In this document: one piece after another, positions 19,353 through 43,356 of the stretch | How the letters are laid out: each line of letters opens with the position of its first letter | Numbering within the stretch: position 1 is the stretch's first letter | DNA from: a virus | Reading direction: 5' to 3' (one strand) | DNA length: 64,000 bases | IMG/VR virus record: IMGVR_UViG_3300036886_000363 | Location: 19,437 to 83,436 of that record | Notes under the pieces: model-generated | The model's database searches: none | What the model was told of the DNA's origin: nothing | Seen by the model: the letters and a program-made list of their open reading frames with translations, nothing else | Program-made: the position numbers and the translations under genes

Positions 19353-19777
19353 GATTCCAAAGTCTCCTTTACAAAGTTTTTGAGATTGCGATTCATCTTC
19401 ATCATTAACTCGATGACCTTCTCTACTCCGGCAGTGCATTTGAATTCCCACTGGATTGGATTGCCGAGAAAGTCTGTCTCTTCATTCATCATCTCTTTGG
19501 CCAATCCTCCCGGGCTGATTGTGTAAGTATACCAGTTGGCTGGATCGATGAATCTTGCCTGACCGATAGGAGTTATTTTTTGCAAGAAACTTGACCATCT
19601 CGCAATTGTTGGTTTCTTGTTGTTGATATAGGCGACAACTCCCGGGTAATCATCACAATGATAGCAATGATCGTATCGGAGCATATCGCCTATTGGTAGG
19701 GTTGCCGGATTGAGTTGATCTTCGACTTCATACATCTCGATCTTTTTCACTATGATTTTTGTTGACTTCTTTTTCAT
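19349..19777 (-). CDS. Hypothetical protein
   Basis: ORF track; DMLRYD...PTIARWSSF. Confidence 0.6.
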   Translation of the reverse strand: MKKKSTKIIVKKIEMYEVEDQLNPATLPIGDMLRYDHCYHCDDYPGVVAYINNKKPTIARWSSFLQKITPIGQARFIDPANWYTYTISPGGLAKEMMNEETDFLGNPIQWEFKCTAGVEKVIELMMKMNRNLKNFVKETLES

Positions 19778-36199: not shown

Positions 36200-37226
36200 T
36201 TTCTTGAAAGGTCTTCCCGGAAGCAGATATTTGAAAACCAGAGATGCTGGTTTCAAGGAGGAAGAGCATCCTCGTGGACAGCCGAATAATCCCGGGCAAT
36301 TTGTTGAAGGGGGAGGATCGAGTTCATCCGGATCCGAGGAGTCTGAATCAAAGAAGGAAGAATCACAGTCACAGGAGAAGAGTAACGAAGAGAAACTGAA
36401 AGAGGCGAGAAAGGCTCACAAGGAAGCGCGGGAGAAAAATGATTTTGATGAAATGGTAAAACATCGAAAGACCATAAATGAACTCGAAAAAGTATTGGCT
36501 CCTCCTCCTACAGAGATCGGCAAGACGACATGGGAAGAACAGGCAAAGAGACAGGTCGCGAATAGATATATCAAGGCCAACTTCAATATTAATAGTGTCT
36601 CTGGATCAATCGAGCAGGTCAATGCAACTGGCAGTCATTTATCGAAGCTTTGTAATCAATTCCCGGAAGTGCATTTCCAGTTAAAGAAACATCGTATGAG
36701 TTTTATTAAGTATCAGGGAGAGAATGAAGTTCTTAAATCGAGATATGGACATGAAATGGGAAGAAGATCTCGGGGAGTTTATGAGGACAAAACGGGAGAT
36801 GGTGCAATGCCTGCAATTACAATGAAGGCTTTGAAAAGAAGAGATGCACTTAAATTTGATACAGATGCTGGCAAGGTTGGATATGTTTTTGGCTCGGAGA
36901 ATAATGGGCACAGCGATGGAGATGTTTTGAATCATGAATTAGGCCACCACATGATGTTTTGCATAGGTAAAAAAGCCCGAAGAGAATGGTATGATGTTTG
37001 TGAAAAAATGGGAGGGTCTATTGCTCTGGAAAAGACAGTTTCAAAGTATGCTGGAACAATAATAAAAGCAACTCCAATGGGAGTTGATAGAAATCCGGAA
37101 GATTGGTATCAGGAAGGATTTGCAGAGAGTTTCGCAAAATTTACAAATCCTAATTATAAGAAAGGCAATCTGCCTCAATCAATTGAAAATTATATGACCA
37201 AGTATTTTAAAAAGGACAAATCATGA
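36186..37226 (+). CDS. Zincin-like metallopeptidase with shared N-terminal leader
   Basis: NHELGHH (HExxH), VSKYA, QEGFAESF; leader MLLYDFLKGL...TRDA and FKEEEHPRG...GQF. Confidence 0.75.
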   Translation: MLLYDFLKGLPGSRYLKTRDAGFKEEEHPRGQPNNPGQFVEGGGSSSSGSEESESKKEESQSQEKSNEEKLKEARKAHKEAREKNDFDEMVKHRKTINELEKVLAPPPTEIGKTTWEEQAKRQVANRYIKANFNINSVSGSIEQVNATGSHLSKLCNQFPEVHFQLKKHRMSFIKYQGENEVLKSRYGHEMGRRSRGVYEDKTGDGAMPAITMKALKRRDALKFDTDAGKVGYVFGSENNGHSDGDVLNHELGHHMMFCIGKKARREWYDVCEKMGGSIALEKTVSKYAGTIIKATPMGVDRNPEDWYQEGFAESFAKFTNPNYKKGNLPQSIENYMTKYFKKDKS

Positions 37227-37999: not shown

Positions 38000-40771
38000 A
38001 TGTCAAAAAAGAAGACAAAAGATTCAACGCCGGATTTCAAGAGAGATTTTGTTGAACCAATAAGAAGAGCAGCAGACAATATCGGAGGAGTATTGCCTCC
38101 ACAACTTGTCTCTTCAGCTCTCCCTCTCTTGCAGCCTTATCCTGTAATTACTCAACCTCCGGTCTGGAGAAAAAGATATGGTGTAGATGATTCTGTCCCC
38201 AAAGATGCGACATTGAAACAATCATCGATGGCAACAGACAGCTTCGCAAATTTTACTGCTCGTCTGGGGATCCAGGCCAGCAATATATCTTCTACGGCAG
38301 GATATGCACTCGGACCTTTCATCACGAGAAACAGAATCGCTCTTGAAGCAGCTTATCGTGATAGTTGGGTTGTCGGGAAGGCGATTGATTGCATCGCCGA
38401 AGACATGACTCAAGCTGGGATTTCGATGCATTCCAAATTGAAACCAGCGGAGATCAAAGATATGCAAGTTGCTATCAGCGAATTCAAGATATGGCATGAT
38501 CTGGGAATGGCGATCAAGTGGGCAAGACTTTATGGAGGTTGTCTTGCTGTCATGATGATAGACGGACATAATTATGAAGCTCCTCTCGACATTACAAGAG
38601 TCGGGAAAGATAAATTCAAGGGGCTTGTTGTCCTTGATAGATGGATGGTTCAACCCAGTATGGGAGAGTTAATAACCGATCTGGGAACGGATATTGGCAT
38701 GCCGAAATTCTATCAGGCGATGCCGGGGGTCTCTACTTTCCCATCAAAGAAGATCCACCATACACGCTGTCTCCGATTTGACGGGATCGAGCTTCCTTAT
38801 TATCAGAAATTGTTTGAAAATCTCTGGGGATTGTCTGTCGTCGAAAGATGCCTCGATCGTCTTCTGGCCTTCGATTCTGCAACTCAGGGTGCTGCCCAGT
38901 TGTTGTATAAATCTCATCTCCGGGTTATCAGGGTGAAGGATTTTCGTCTTGCCCTTGCTGCAGGTGGCAATCAGGAAGAGGCCATGATGAAGATGTTCAT
39001 GTATATCCGGTCAATGCAGACAAATGAAGGATTGACAGTCCTTGATGCTGAAGACGAATTTGCGACTCATTCATATACCTTTGCAGGTGTGTCGGATGCC
39101 CTCCAGCAGTTCGGCCAGCAGATCGCCGGTTCTATTGATACTCCTCTCGTCAGGTTATTTGGACAGAGTCCTGCCGGATTCAGTACGGGAGATACCGACA
39201 TAAGAAACTATTATGACGGGATTAAGAAGAGACAGGAGAACGATCTCCGTCCCCGGCTTGATCCATTGCTTGCAGTCATAGCGATGTCGAGGTTAGGCCA
39301 TGCCCTCCCCGATGACTTTGAATTCAAGTTTATCCCATTATGGCAAATGTCTGAGAATGAAAAATCAGAGATTGCAGGCAAGGTTGTTGATACGGTTGTC
39401 AAGGCAAAGGATGCCGGGTTAATCCCTCTGCATACCGCGATGAAAGAGTTGCAGGAATCTTCCCGGATAACTGGAGTATTTACAAATATAACCGATGAGG
39501 ATATTGAAGAAGCCGAGAATAATCCTCCTGAAGCTCCGATGCCGGGAGCACCCGGTGCTGAGGGCGGGCCAGAAGGAGGAGAGAAGAAGCCAGATGAAAC
39601 AAAAGGAGCCGAAAAGCCAAATGAGAGACTCGGAGCTGCGGATCCCGATGTTGAAAAGGAGAAGATTCCTGAAAAAGAAACTCAAGATGTCGGGAGATCA
39701 TCTGTTAGAGATATTTTTAATATTTGGAGAGAGAAGAGAAGGAAGATATTAAATTCTCTTGATACGATTTTTAAAGAGGAAGAACATCCCAGAGGATCAG
39801 GGGAGAAAGGCGGGCAGTTTGTCAGCAAGGGGGAAGGTGGAACATCGGGAAAGAAGGAAGGAGAAGGTAAAGAATCTAAAGCGGGAACACAGACAGTCAA
39901 GCGCACTAAGTCTACCCAGTCTTTTGAAGAGACGAAACGGGATAAAGAAGGCAAGGTCGTATTGTCATCGGGCAAGCCTCTTCCAAAGCATATGGTTAAT
40001 ACCTATATAGCACCGGCGTGGGAAAATGTCCTTATTAATCCCGATCCCAAAGGAGACTTGTGGGCTGTTGGTCATAACAAGGAAGGTAAAATTGTTGGCT
40101 GGGTCTATAGTGATGAGCATAATAGTGGGAAGGACATTGCTAAGGATAGTATGTACCAAGAGCTGAGAAAGCAATATACGTCTATCGTTCAACAGCTCAA
40201 TAACGATTATAAGGATAAGGATAAAAAGGAGTCAGCTTTCGTTACAAAGATAATAGCTAACACTGGTGCAAGGATAGGCAGTCAGAAAGAAGCTATCGGC
40301 ATAAAGGGGATAAAAACTTACGGCGCATCGACGCTAGAAGCGAGACATATAGTTGCTGAGAAAGACGGTACGGTTAAATTAGATTTTATTGGTAAAGACG
40401 CCAAGCGTAATATCTACACTGTTACAGATAAGAAGGTTGCCGATGAGTTGAAGAGTTTGGTAGCAGGTAAGAAGCCTGCGGATAATTTATTTGCTGCCAA
40501 TTATAATATGTGTCTTAATTATGTCAAGTCTCTTGATGGTGGAGGATTTACTCCTAAGAGTTTTAGGCTTAAGATAGCGACGGACTTAGCATTGCAAACA
40601 ATGAAGACAATGGGAGCGCCAACAGATCCAAAAGATTATAAGAAGAAGGTTTTGGCGGTTGCCAAAACAGTAGCCGAACAATTAAATAATACTCCAGCAA
40701 TAGCTTTGAAGCAGTATATAGTCGCAAGTATATGGACTGACTGGAAGACTAAAGCCGGAGTCGGGGTATAA
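38000..40771 (+). CDS. Portal protein (DUF1073/Acb1-like family) fused to a type IB topoisomerase domain
   Basis: Portal: AIDCIAEDMT, WARLYGG, IHHTRCLRF, PLVRLFGQSPAG, NYYD. Topo IB: IAPAW, RIGS, TYGASTL...H, DFIGK, KSFR, LNNTP...QYI. Confidence 0.9.
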   Translation: MSKKKTKDSTPDFKRDFVEPIRRAADNIGGVLPPQLVSSALPLLQPYPVITQPPVWRKRYGVDDSVPKDATLKQSSMATDSFANFTARLGIQASNISSTAGYALGPFITRNRIALEAAYRDSWVVGKAIDCIAEDMTQAGISMHSKLKPAEIKDMQVAISEFKIWHDLGMAIKWARLYGGCLAVMMIDGHNYEAPLDITRVGKDKFKGLVVLDRWMVQPSMGELITDLGTDIGMPKFYQAMPGVSTFPSKKIHHTRCLRFDGIELPYYQKLFENLWGLSVVERCLDRLLAFDSATQGAAQLLYKSHLRVIRVKDFRLALAAGGNQEEAMMKMFMYIRSMQTNEGLTVLDAEDEFATHSYTFAGVSDALQQFGQQIAGSIDTPLVRLFGQSPAGFSTGDTDIRNYYDGIKKRQENDLRPRLDPLLAVIAMSRLGHALPDDFEFKFIPLWQMSENEKSEIAGKVVDTVVKAKDAGLIPLHTAMKELQESSRITGVFTNITDEDIEEAENNPPEAPMPGAPGAEGGPEGGEKKPDETKGAEKPNERLGAADPDVEKEKIPEKETQDVGRSSVRDIFNIWREKRRKILNSLDTIFKEEEHPRGSGEKGGQFVSKGEGGTSGKKEGEGKESKAGTQTVKRTKSTQSFEETKRDKEGKVVLSSGKPLPKHMVNTYIAPAWENVLINPDPKGDLWAVGHNKEGKIVGWVYSDEHNSGKDIAKDSMYQELRKQYTSIVQQLNNDYKDKDKKESAFVTKIIANTGARIGSQKEAIGIKGIKTYGASTLEARHIVAEKDGTVKLDFIGKDAKRNIYTVTDKKVADELKSLVAGKKPADNLFAANYNMCLNYVKSLDGGGFTPKSFRLKIATDLALQTMKTMGAPTDPKDYKKKVLAVAKTVAEQLNNTPAIALKQYIVASIWTDWKTKAGVGV

Positions 40772-40780
40772 GGAGGCGTT

Positions 40781-40939
40781 ATGGAAGATTATCCAGAGAC
40801 ACAATACGGAAATATTAGAACAGATAAATTTGATTGGCGCAAGTATAGTAACGATACGGATGACGATGTTGATGAACCTGCGTCTGCTATGCTAATTAAA
40901 ATGTTGGGGTTCAATCCCGACGAGGACGAAGAGGAATAA
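40781..40939 (+). CDS. 52-aa acidic protein (candidate Topo IB inhibitor)
   Basis: AAGGAGG RBS; MEDYPETQYG...DWRKYSNDTDDDVDEP...MLGFNPDEDEEE. Confidence 0.65.
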   Translation: MEDYPETQYGNIRTDKFDWRKYSNDTDDDVDEPASAMLIKMLGFNPDEDEEE

Positions 40940-41109
40940 TGTACACCCTCCCATACAGAACGACAGAAGCTCCCAAAGATGAGAAGGCCTATAAAAAAGC
41001 GGTTCTCAAGGTTGCAAAAGAGGTCGCAGCCAAACTCGGCAATACTCCTGCAGTTGCTCTGAAGGCCTATATTAGTCCTGTAGTTTTTGCGCAATGGAGG
41101 ACAAAGTAA
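40939..41109 (+). pseudogene. Orphan second Topo IB C-terminal fragment (56 aa)
   Basis: APKDEKAYKKAVLKVAKEVAAKLGNTPAVALKAYI aligns with APTDPKDYKKKVLAVAKTVAEQLNNTPAIALKQYI of the portal fusion. Confidence 0.8.
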
Positions 41110-41561
41110 TGTTGCTCACCGATATGAGGATAAGGAAGGGAAGATTCATACAAAAAGATGCTGAAGAGGTTTACAAAGGAATCGGCTCTTTATTGGGAGA
41201 AGCAGGTCATGTTGAATCTGGATTAATCGAATTATTCGCCGATAACAAAAAAGTGAAAGATAGCGAGATTCATAAAATGGCTGAACAACTGGGTTGGGAG
41301 GCTGATAAATTGGAAGAGATGGTTTATTCCCTCCTTCAGTCATTCCTTTCTCAGGGCAAGTTTATGAAGGAGGGGCAGGGCAAACAATTCGATGATAAAG
41401 AAGTTGAGATGGGAAAGAAAGTCGAGCTTGAACATACAAACAATCCCATTCTCTCATTGAGAATAACATTGGATCATTTAACAGAGATACCAGACTACTA
41501 TACTCGATTGGCGCAGATGGAGAAAGAAGGGAAGGCGGCAATGAAGGGAGGACAAGAATAA
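41109..41561 (+). CDS. DUF5661-like protein with shared leader
   Basis: MGKKVELEHT...ITLDHLTEIPDYYTRL; likely start MLLTD at 41109 (TAATG coupling). Confidence 0.7.
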   Translation: MLLTDMRIRKGRFIQKDAEEVYKGIGSLLGEAGHVESGLIELFADNKKVKDSEIHKMAEQLGWEADKLEEMVYSLLQSFLSQGKFMKEGQGKQFDDKEVEMGKKVELEHTNNPILSLRITLDHLTEIPDYYTRLAQMEKEGKAAMKGGQE

Positions 41562-42313
41562 TGGCAGACCTGATTCAAGACTTACCGGAAGCTCCTTTTC
41601 AAAAGTCAAAGGCGATCCAGGAGGAGTATGCCCGTGCTCTGAGAGGGGTATCCAGACAAGTTGGAAATTTAATTAAAGGTTACAACCCGACCGATCCTCT
41701 TTCAGCAGAGAGGTTAAGGAAAGCGCTGAGAGCTTATTCAGAACTTATTGGGCCATGGGCAGAGACAATCAGCAAAAGGATCCTTGTGGCTGTCAACAAT
41801 CAAGATTACAATGCTTGGAGGCAGCATAGCCGGGAAATGTCCCTCAAGATGAGGCAAGAGATATTGTCGTCAAATGTGGGCGAGACCTTTCAAAGACTCA
41901 TGAGGGAGAATGTCGAACTCATCAAATCGATACCTTTGAAGGCTGCAGAGAGAGTCCATGAATTGGTCACAGAGAATCTTATGCAGAGCGCCCGGGCAGA
42001 TGAGATATCACAGAAGATAATGGAGTCCGAGAAGGTATCCAAAGTGGTCGCAACCCGGATTGCCCGGACAGAGATTGCAAGAGCATCGAGTACTTTGCTT
42101 CAATCAAGGGCTTTGTCTATTGGGAGTACGGGCTACATTTGGAAGACCTCTAAAGATTTGTTAGTTAGGAAATCACACAAGATAATGGAAGGCAAATTTA
42201 TTAAGTGGAATGATCCGCCAAAACTAAGTGATGGTACGATAACCCATGCCGGGCAAATTTACAATTGCAGATGCTGGCCGGATGTTCAAATTCCTGAAGG
42301 AAATTATTCATGA
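41561..42313 (+). CDS. Head morphogenesis protein (Mu gpF / SPP1 gp7 family)
   Basis: NVELIKSIP, RIARTE, YIWKTSKD..VRKSH, HAGQIYNCRC. Confidence 0.9.
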   Translation: MADLIQDLPEAPFQKSKAIQEEYARALRGVSRQVGNLIKGYNPTDPLSAERLRKALRAYSELIGPWAETISKRILVAVNNQDYNAWRQHSREMSLKMRQEILSSNVGETFQRLMRENVELIKSIPLKAAERVHELVTENLMQSARADEISQKIMESEKVSKVVATRIARTEIARASSTLLQSRALSIGSTGYIWKTSKDLLVRKSHKIMEGKFIKWNDPPKLSDGTITHAGQIYNCRCWPDVQIPEGNYS

Positions 42314-42975
42314 AATATGAACTTTATAATTTAATCTTTCTGAATGGGAAAAGATACATTGGAATTTCTCAGGATTCAAAGAAAAGATTTGTAACCCATA
42401 AAGCGCTTGCGAGAAGTGGATATCCTCAAGCTGTTTATAGAGCAATTAGAAAATATGGAGATAATTCAGTCAAACTTAAAATTTTGGCTGTTGGAGAAAA
42501 GGATTATATTCTTGAAATGGAAAAGAAAGCTATTTTTATTTTTAAAACAATGAATAAGAAGTTTGGGTATAATATGTCTCCCGGAGGAGAAATAAGTCCT
42601 GTTGCTGGCATTGGTCATTCGAAGAAGAGTAAAAGAAAAATGAGCATCTCTCAAAAAAATAGAATTCATACTCCAGAAGAAATTGCTAAGATGGCTGCTT
42701 CTTTAAAGGGAAGAGTTTTTTCAGAAGAACATAAAGAGAAGTTAAGCTTTGCCGCCTCCAAAAGAAAGATCCCAGAACAGATAAGAACAAAAATAAGTGC
42801 TTCTTTAAAAGGAAATATCCCGTGGAATAAAGGGATCCCTCGTTCTAATGAAGTTAAAAGAAGAATATCTGATTCTTTAAAAGGACATTCAGCGACGATT
42901 GGTTTTACTGGCAGAAAACATTCTGAAGAAACAAAACAGAGAATGAGAGAATCTCATTTGAAAAGGGTTGCGTAA
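42310..42975 (+). mobile_element. GIY-YIG homing endonuclease with NUMOD3 repeats
   Basis: LY...NGKRYIGIS...R, GYNMSPGG, HSEETKQRM; AT-rich. Confidence 0.85.
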
Positions 42976-42990: not shown

Positions 42991-43356
42991 ATGTTGCTCA
43001 GTGATTTTTTATCCAAAGGCGTCAAGAACGGGATGTATGCAAAGACAAAAGAGGGGAAGGCTTTTGCCCGGGATGCCTCAATATTAAAATCAAATAAAGA
43101 CTCCGACATCATAATCAATATTAATGTTGGAGAAGGAGATCAGCCCGGGCCAGAGATCATAGCGGCAGAGAATGTTGAAATCCCCGCAGAGACACCGACC
43201 AATACAGAGGGCACAGAGTATAAGGGATATACAATCAAGCAAGAGAATGATGGCAGATTTCTTATCTACTCGATTGGCGGTGCACTGATAACCGAAGCGG
43301 CTTCCCTTGAGCTTGCCATGAATATCATTAATGGAATGGCGATAGATGGAGAATAA
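42991..43356 (+). CDS. Hypothetical head-associated protein with shared leader
   Basis: MLLSDFLSKG...ARDAS. Confidence 0.65.
   Translation: MLLSDFLSKGVKNGMYAKTKEGKAFARDASILKSNKDSDIIININVGEGDQPGPEIIAAENVEIPAETPTNTEGTEYKGYTIKQENDGRFLIYSIGGALITEAASLELAMNIINGMAIDGE

Follow-up and report, generated by a model that had tools for sequence, protein, structure and literature searches.

Introduction

Why a phage topoisomerase gene should be trailed by a second, detached copy of its own C-terminus is the question raised by a locus in the 64-kb stretch of DNA analysed here (64,000 nucleotides; IMG/VR virus record IMGVR_UViG_3300036886_000363, positions 19,437 to 83,436), hereafter called the window. The window represents the head-gene module of an uncultured peat phage and is part of an 83-kb virus record that is approximately 90% complete. 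The genes of interest are ordered as InPase, a fusion of a portal protein with a type IB topoisomerase (Topo IB, or Topo for short), a small acidic gene, a 56-residue open reading frame (ORF) that resembles the end of the Topo, a DUF5661 gene, a MuF gene and a GIY-YIG endonuclease gene. In a sequence-only reading of this region it was proposed that the C-terminal tip of the Topo, together with an inhibitor encoded by the acidic gene, had been swapped in by recombination, displacing the old tip in the manner of the orphan modules of polymorphic toxins.

In this study, the locus was compared with related loci and proteins, which are given by handles such as L004 and P0018. The comparisons of sequences support an exchange by recombination of the Topo and the acidic gene as one whole module, and not of the tip alone. 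We consider it rather probable that a cognate Topo–acidic module of one type, called A, now lies in a backbone of another type, called B, and that the 56-residue ORF is the joint, or scar, of this exchange.

Results

An A-type topoisomerase in a B-type backbone

The fusion (Table 1) combines a portal domain (residues 114–466) with a Topo IB core (residues 710–902) that scores 72.5 bits against PF01028, the cut-off being 23.7. Along its length, the affinity of the fusion changes at a position just upstream of or at an EEHPR linker. To the left, it is closest to L004 and L010 and thus B-type; to the right, it is closest to P0009, P0001 and L015 and thus A-type. Portal residues 1–520 are 66–67% identical to L004 and L010 but only 45–56% identical to the others, whereas the Topo body is 47–49% identical to L003 and L015 (with P0009 and P0001 also among the closest) and 34–37% identical to L004 and L010. 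The window falls in a starred clade (99/97) of the Topo tree, away from L004, L010 and P0018, and is grouped with L004 and L010 in the portal tree (88/83 and 86/96). In approximately unbiased (AU) tests, a grouping of the portal with the sisters of the Topo was rejected (p 2.8e-5), as was a grouping of the Topo with L004 and L010 (p 1.75e-4).

The change of type extends over more than the tip. The EEHPR linker, the Topo domain and the acidic gene are all A-type, and the body and tip of the Topo diverge together across relatives. Downstream, the MuF protein shows 59% and 56% identity to those of L010 and L004 and 64% to that of L112, in contrast to 32–43% for the other compared loci. Thus, the part of the sequence-only reading in which a foreign element was brought in by recombination is supported, whereas the unit exchanged is larger than the tip and inhibitor that it had named.

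The closest solved relative of the fusion is the D. radiodurans Topo IB (2f4q; E 5e-12), and the active-site positions R758, K799, R856, N896 and Y906 align with its motifs RVGS, KGK, DFR and GNTP...SY. Twelve fusions show no variation in the columns of R758, K799, R856 and Y906. The bacterial Topo IB N-terminal domain PF21338 reaches 18.9 bits in the fusion, below its cut-off of 27, and a domain of this type is precomputed for several relatives. The partners of the Topo vary among relatives, which include portal–methyltransferase–Topo (P0001), portal–InPase–Topo (P0011 and P0021) and NUDIX–Topo (P0022) proteins. The Topo is therefore an effector domain that is carried on a portal in a head-gene cluster with varying partners, as is expected of polyvalent, virion-anchored effectors.

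The acidic gene as the partner of the topoisomerase

The acidic ORF contains 17 Asp/Glu and five Lys/Arg among its 52 residues (fractions of 0.33 and 0.10), and its relatives of 52–62 residues contain 33–44% Asp/Glu. It starts 9 nt past the TAA of the fusion, behind a Shine–Dalgarno sequence of its own (AAGGAGG). It lies in the frame of the fusion, from which the TAA and three codons separate it (40769–40783); the frames differ in L015, so that the shared frame is probably due to chance.

A hidden Markov model (HMM) was built on nine acidic ORFs and applied to the six-frame ORFs in three sets of loci, each sampled in a different way. Among 80 loci sampled by their portal, an acidic match lies downstream of the Topo in all 12 Topo-bearing loci as well as in the window (11 of the 12 at E<=1e-10, and L072 at 0.035 with a clear motif), while no match below E 1 was found in the 68 Topo-less loci. 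A set sampled with an IUPAC pattern for MLGF[DN]PD[DE] comprised 27 loci, 23 of which were chance matches; the remaining four are true acidic modules with a Topo directly upstream in each. In a metagenome set of 80 loci sampled by MuF, two loci carry a Topo, both with an acidic gene 9–30 nt after it, one further acidic module stands at the start of a contig, and 77 loci have neither a Topo nor an acidic gene. In total, an acidic gene lies just downstream of the Topo in 19/19 Topo-bearing sources, among which L015/L016 and L011/L012/L017 are near-duplicates, and in 0/145 Topo-less relatives. The association persists where the Topo is not fused to a portal (L043, L072 and L115). These counts support the acidic gene as a conserved and real partner gene of the Topo, as the sequence-only reading had supposed. 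The alternative of a general portal- or MuF-linked gene was rejected because of its absence from the 68 and 77 Topo-less loci.

The family to which the acidic gene belongs is unnamed: no Pfam or PHROG model matched it, the PHROGs also gave nothing for the 56-residue ORF or for DUF5661, and no usable match for the acidic protein was found in the ESM Atlas. A profile search over 1.84 billion cluster representatives returned 157 members at E<=1e-3, mostly of 47–90 residues. Approximately 25 of the 150 listed representatives exceed 100 residues, and the acidic module is N-terminal in most of these, with an EEHPR-type linker behind it in the long sequences that were read. Pfam domains were found in eight of 20 scanned long members, namely InPase, GNAT, kinase-like, S78 protease, ferritin-like and SAM-lyase-like domains. 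In L109 the module heads a longer ORF right after the Topo. In the high-GC locus L072 (9367–9700), the Topo, the acidic module, an FVESEHPR linker and a further domain form one open frame; the acidic partner can thus belong to the same polyprotein as the Topo.

The 56-residue ORF and the two joints

Residues 7–56 of the 56-residue ORF align without gaps to residues 869–918 of the fusion with 28/50 identities (E 3e-15, BLASTP). The ORF retains the GNTP...KAYISP motif, with Asn35 and Tyr44 at the positions of the active-site Asn and Tyr, and is indeed, as had been read from the sequence, a diverged copy of approximately the last 50 residues of the Topo. Its tip, called tip B, is 65–72% identical to the tips of L004, L010, L043, L072 and P0018, compared with 45–56% for A-type tips in general and 56% for tip A of the fusion. 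In P0018 and other full portal–Topo fusions such a tail stands in frame (72% identical to tip B in P0018), so that an allele of the kind sought in the sequence-only reading exists. At the DNA level, tips A and B share 86/150 nt (57%), with 19/50 identical third positions and no identical run longer than 8 nt. A second tip occurs in one of the 17 Topo-bearing sources in a tip-HMM scan of 110 sources and in neither of the two in the later metagenome set.

The ORF is not a clean orphan module. Its first 9–13 residues (MYTLPYRTTEAPK) are not Topo sequence: codons 1 to ∼9–13 (MYTLPYRTT-EAPK) appear to be a 5′ fragment of MuF, and the sequence from codon 10 onwards (EAPKDEK) is a B-type Topo tip. 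At this joint, J1, the first 13 residues, when compared with 13,763 six-frame ORFs and with 120 MuF homologues, match best to residues 6–14 of the L010 MuF (E ∼0.1). Twelve of the 120 homologues begin in an M..Y..DAPK-like manner, the closest with MAVVIPYRTTDAKKP, MTYTLDAPKNKP or MPYICDAPKDQK, and the patch at the joint (EAPK or EAPKD.K) is native to both MuF starts and B-type tips. The ATG of the ORF overlaps the stop of the acidic gene (ATAATG) behind GAGGA; a start that overlaps the acidic stop is also seen for MuF in A-type loci. The stop of the ORF in turn overlaps the ATG of DUF5661 (TAATG), and such an overlap between an upstream Topo tip and DUF5661 is found elsewhere in L004 only. Readthrough or frameshifting that would link tip B to the fusion was rejected, since tip B lies in another frame 170 nt downstream with a complete gene in between.

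The other side of DUF5661, joint J2, lies in the first 13 codons of MuF. A pattern for this start matches 13/150 representatives of the acidic family and 0/120 MuF homologues, with six occurrences in background ORFs that total 1.03 million residues. The ten residues before PFQKS carry a net charge of −3 in the window, as opposed to −2 to +4 in 29 homologues, 27 of which are positive. B-type acidic genes begin with M..I.DLP.[AV].F, and the start of MuF resembles in its sequence the N-terminal end of B-type acidic genes and not that of a MuF. The order in L004 is Topo(B), DUF5661, acidic(B), x and MuF, with overlapping stops and starts, and both ends of the block in the window (tip B, DUF5661 and acidic-like start) fit this order. 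The sequence comparisons thus support the view that broken remnants of a B-type Topo–acidic pair flank DUF5661, adjoining an intact A-type pair.

Predicted binding of the acidic protein

A complex of Topo residues 640–923 and the acidic protein was predicted with a score of 0.67, compared with 0.02 for the best of three controls. The mark for such scores is reached by 58/80 solved complexes and 2/110 mismatched pairs, figures that hold only roughly for the author-made alignments used here. The runs share at least 59% of their contacts, with a partner predicted local-distance difference test (pLDDT) value of at least 63. The predicted interface comprises residues 758–760, 799, 848–854, 897–905 and 909–922 of the Topo, about half of them on the tip, and residues 3–47 of the acidic protein, including the conserved F17, W19, L38, M41–F44 and P46. 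In this model, the acidic protein probably binds in the active-site cleft of the Topo and on its C-terminal tip, and the contacts suggest that the DNA site would be occluded. From this we infer inhibition, that is, a role as a DNA mimic or inhibitor: the separately translated acidic protein would span the DNA-binding cleft, touching the catalytic Arg758 and Lys799 and much of the tip, and would most likely keep the Topo off DNA until needed, as a DNA-mimic-like plug.

It is also conceivable, but unlikely in our judgement, that the acidic module binds the Topo not as an inhibitor but as a docking tag or assembly chaperone, which would fix itself, or the cargo that follows it in a fusion, to the portal-tethered Topo and so bring it into the capsid. 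The long family members, with the module mostly at the N-terminus and Pfam domains typical of virion-packaged polyvalent proteins, speak for such a tag, as do the arrangements in L109 and L072, the module of the latter lying in frame between the Topo and the next EHPR-linked domain. However, most members of the family are free-standing and carry no cargo, and the predicted contacts, which include the catalytic Arg and Lys and residues around the Tyr, together with a protein one third of which is acidic, suggest occupation of the DNA site. The roles of plug and tag are not mutually exclusive.

Support for the arrangement

Between 37000 and 43500, the window is matched with 0 differences by a 17.6-kb contig of run X1, which is possibly the source itself. 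A 375-nt contig of run X15, which comes from another study and is not flagged as a source, matches 40762–41136 with 0 differences and bridges the joints between the acidic gene, the 56-residue ORF and DUF5661; the arrangement is therefore neither a one-off misassembly nor an artefact of one data set. Fifteen peat-metagenome runs (2018–2023) hold 0.74–1.00 of the sampled words for 39400–42400, and all sampled words are present in 13 runs; many of the runs may come from one campaign or be the source. Runs X15, X16 and X19, which contain part of the words, gave only identical fragments of low depth, in which no alternative arrangement or population variant was seen and which are uninformative on polymorphism. 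Small shares of the same interval occur in freshwater and lake runs, which gave short identical fragments only.

A blastn search in distant mode with 38000–42400 found no match among phage records, and a tblastn search of these with the Topo domain found five Rhizobium phages only, at 31–32% identity over half of the query. Scans of viral contigs with single proteins returned no locus for the Topo and one distant, uninformative locus each for MuF and DUF5661. The other window genes (31–50 kb), when compared with the loci, did not discriminate the lineage of the backbone beyond what the portal and MuF had given.

Discussion

How the exchange may have occurred

Whether the module replaced a resident one or a piece was inserted beside it, the orphan tip is the scar of an illegitimate recombination. 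In the replacement history, the resident would have had the L004-like order of Topo(B), DUF5661, acidic(B), x and MuF, and its linker and Topo body would have been replaced by an A cassette consisting of the EEHPR linker, the Topo, the acidic gene and the beginning (∼10 codons) of the adjoining MuF of the donor. The backbone retained would be the B-type portal, DUF5661 junction and MuF body. The end of the cassette, the MuF start, would have been joined at the short EAPK similarity to the last ∼46 codons of the B-type Topo, and the redundant stretch of acidic(B), x and the 5′ end of MuF would have been deleted later, so that the matching B-type acidic gene, cut to ∼13 codons, now starts MuF. 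The 56-residue ORF probably stays open only because it lies inside a chain of overlapping stops and starts, which runs from the acidic gene through the ORF and DUF5661 to MuF.

Several points weigh against this reading of the locus. The joints were recognized from protein motifs of 9–13 residues, because no closer relative was found, and the nearest relative of any segment stands at ∼50–70% protein identity. The match at J1 is by itself not significant, the pattern for J2 was written post hoc from MADLIQDLPEAPF, the groups for the AU tests were chosen after other results had been seen, and the portal clade with L004 and L010 is not starred. The GC content at third codon positions (GC3) is 0.43–0.44 for tip B and DUF5661, 0.44–0.47 for the portal and MuF, and 0.38–0.40 for the A-type Topo and the acidic gene; these differences are small and not significant, and a foreign segment was not distinguishable by GC, GC3 or dinucleotide composition. 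As to the pairing of enzyme and partner, the predicted binding comes from one structure-prediction job, and the long, cargo-fused family members are not an obvious design for a dedicated inhibitor. Two further points lean towards an insertion: an exact 8-nt direct repeat, GAAGCTCC, flanks the block 40966–41587, which fits insertion slightly better, and the MuF fragment before tip B resembles B-type MuF starts (L010 and L004), as does the MuF body.

This insertion is the somewhat unlikely alternative that an A-type Topo and acidic gene already stood directly before MuF (start MYTLPYRTTEAP...FQKSK), and that a 622-nt L004-like piece, comprising the last ∼46 Topo codons, DUF5661 and the first ∼9–13 acidic codons, entered MuF at its 5′ end through two joints at microhomologies. 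Tip B would then have hitch-hiked with DUF5661 without ever having belonged to the Topo of this genome, and the chimerism of portal and Topo would be older and separate. A single event would account for both joints, and the block is contiguous in the gene order of L004. However, an extra, scar-free replacement is then required for the B-type portal with its A-type Topo, and since a MuF rejoined at the repeat would lack the basic stretch that precedes PFQKS in 27 of 29 homologues, ∼12 codons must also have been lost. Furthermore, tip B, the portal and MuF are all of the L004/L010 lineage, as vertical inheritance of the block predicts, and the GC3 of tip B and DUF5661 is nearer to that of the portal and MuF, a weak trend that is not significant. 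Replacement is thus slightly preferred to insertion.

The remaining explanations concern the orphan itself. We hold it quite improbable that the 56-residue ORF has a function of its own, for example by titrating the acidic protein as a decoy, by acting in trans as a C-terminal fragment or, as a mere leader, by coupling translation to DUF5661. Its open frame, the overlaps of its start and stop with the neighbouring genes and its Asn and Tyr motif speak for such a function, but an ORF found in one of the 19 sources offers no conservation to show selection, 56 codons are expected to be open by chance soon after the event, and all of the runs found were DNA contigs. The analogy with polymorphic toxins, in which a small cassette of tip and inhibitor can be exchanged and the orphan is stored as an alternative for recombination, appears very improbable. 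The order of main gene with tip A, partner and orphan tip B does resemble toxin–immunity–orphan arrays, the tip contributes about half of the interface predicted for the acidic protein, and tip B-like alleles stand in frame in relatives. Against this, the foreign type extends over the whole Topo domain, the DNA similarity of the two tips leaves no substrate for homologous switching, and what stands before the orphan is a fragment of MuF in place of a Topo homology arm. After the orphan comes DUF5661 in place of an intact partner, the cognate acidic gene having been destroyed, with ∼13 codons fused to MuF, and a second tip is present in only 1/19 Topo-bearing sources. This part of the sequence-only reading was therefore not sustained. 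Next to no credence is given to a local tandem duplication of the 3′ end of the Topo or to a chimeric assembly: the two similar tails do lie 350 nt apart, but tip B has its closest counterparts in other lineages and not in tip A, which it resembles little in DNA, while the strings shared at the joints (8–12 nt) are much shorter than the words used by assemblers and the run of the other study gave one joint independently, with 0 differences.

Table 1. Features of the locus on the strand analysed, with window coordinates and the evidence for each.
Feature	Position	Strand	Evidence or remark
Portal–Topo IB fusion gene, 923 residues	38000..40771	+	PF06381 3e-105, PF01028 4e-20
Left breakpoint zone, fusion residues ∼480–590, low-complexity linker	39440..39770	+	Sliding-window and module identities, trees, AU tests
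EEHPRG..GEKGGQF..GGG linker motif opening the Topo module	39770..39844	+	Motif scan
Tip A, last 55 residues of the live Topo, A-type, ...NNTPAIALKQYIVAS...	40604..40771	+	
Acidic partner gene, 52 residues, A-type, unnamed family	40781..40939	+	HMM matches, complex prediction
Chimeric 56-residue ORF	40939..41109	+	BLASTP, MuF and tip comparisons
GAAGCTCC (Glu-Ala-Pro) at J1	40966..40973	+	Exact repeat at 41588–41595 (J2); codons 10–12 in both ORFs
DUF5661 gene	41109..41561	+	PF18905 1e-11
First 13 MuF codons (MADLIQDLPEAPF), before the conserved PFQKSK	41561..41599	+	Pattern counts, charge
MuF/SPP1 gp7-type head morphogenesis gene, B-type body	41561..42313	+	PF04233

Relation to known systems

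Vaccinia Topo IB is packaged in virions. The Topo described here resembles the poxvirus and bacterial Topo IB enzymes (PF01028; 2f4q and vaccinia 2h7f) in having Arg, Lys, Arg, Asn/His and Tyr at aligned positions and a C-terminal ...GNTP...Y(I/V).P tail, but differs from them in being carried on a phage portal by an EEHPR linker, or in other virion polyproteins, and in always being followed by a small acidic gene. In the Hendrix/Hatfull model, phage mosaicism arises by illegitimate recombination at short similarities. The locus agrees with this model in that adjacent segments conflict phylogenetically and the joints lie at similarities of 8–12 nt at or near gene starts; it differs in that both halves of a gene pair left datable remnants, so that the event can be reconstructed. 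Polymorphic toxins of the contact-dependent inhibition (CDI) and Rhs systems have orphan C-terminal toxin/immunity cassettes. A truncated alternative C-terminus downstream of a main gene and its partner is common to these and the present locus, which, unlike them, has no homology arm, no intact cognate partner and a single occurrence, and in which the whole domain was exchanged.

DNA-mimic inhibitor proteins include, for example, Ugi, p56, SAUGI, Ocr and Gam. The acidic protein is like such inhibitors (PMC3902945; PMC5218532) in being small and very acidic and in its predicted position in the DNA-binding site of the target; it differs in that the target would be the own virion enzyme of the phage and not an enzyme of the host, and it has no sequence relation to them. 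The polyvalent virion proteins treated in passages of Iyer et al. (2017; PMC5512222) likewise have effector domains that are fused to a portal or MuF and exchanged between phages, and the locus fits the theme of virion effectors set out there. InPase, which is named in the same passages, is the upstream gene in the window and part of the same polyprotein in P0011 and P0021. The main text of that paper contains the word 'topoisomerase' once, in the reference list, and its passages do not name the acidic module or the EEHPR linker. Full-text literature searches found no paper that deals with a portal–Topo IB fusion, with the acidic family or with a Topo IB inhibitor from a phage.

Meaning of the topoisomerase–acidic pair

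The main interest of the locus is the Topo–acidic pair itself. If the acidic protein plugs a portal-tethered Topo, the pair would be a new virion enzyme with a built-in inhibitor, and a compact one (∼280 and 52 residues), and would add to the catalogue of phage proteins that are delivered with DNA. Since both genes of the displaced pair left remnants, the locus records an exchange of modules between lineages at the resolution of single joints, and the scar suggests that enzyme and partner must match. A speculative and rather doubtful extension is that twelve copies of the portal-tethered Topo IB lie in the capsid, each held inactive by a dedicated, co-evolving acidic DNA mimic, and that the pairs come in incompatible types. 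The mimic would plug the active site and clasp the C-terminal tip, and pairs of types A, B and others would be exchanged as units at EEHPR linkers; the types being mutually incompatible, a mismatched B-type plug would be lost together with the B-type enzyme. If true, this would be a new kind of enzyme/anti-enzyme pair inside the virion that behaves like an effector–immunity module. One orphan tail, on the other hand, is not evidence for a diversifying system like that of the polymorphic toxins, and this tempting analogy is corrected here.

Further observations

The EEHPR..G.F..GGG linker occurs at domain borders in the window (36252–36320 and 39770–39844) and at 17 further places in the compared loci, and may mark sites of recombination or of processing. 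Between the window and L112, 56/75 nt of the linker are identical, including an unbroken run of 17 nt, although the overall identity of the proteins is 40%. The C-terminal half of the acidic HMM (ORF residues ∼33–48) weakly matches a Topo helix, LI.K.G.RPG (E 0.012 in a 22-protein set), which surrounds the catalytic Arg (for example, P0019 146–175); the match may be due to chance or to mimicry of an intramolecular contact. A C-terminal module, YKG.TIKQ..G.F.I.S.GGAL...LELA, is found on a 121-residue ORF of the window (42991–43356) and also ends the proteins P0154, P0155, P0158, P0161, P0168, P0182 and P0196, which are headed by the acidic module.

A homing-endonuclease-like gene with GIY-YIG and NUMOD3 domains (42310–42975) overlaps the stop of MuF and has a GC content of 0.33, compared with 0.43 for the window; a homologue with 49% identity lies at the same site after MuF in L112, and none is present in L004 or L010. 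Several ORFs of the head cluster begin with a leader, MLL.DFLKGL.GS.Y.KT(R/K)DA, which is found in the window at the ORF starts 36186, 37427, 41109 and 42991 and in the loci at L004:9061, L112:1764, L120:23, L015:9816 and L003:8735, with the variant MLLTDMRIRKGRFIQKDA in DUF5661. The leader may serve internal head proteins as a signal for capsid targeting or as a propeptide.

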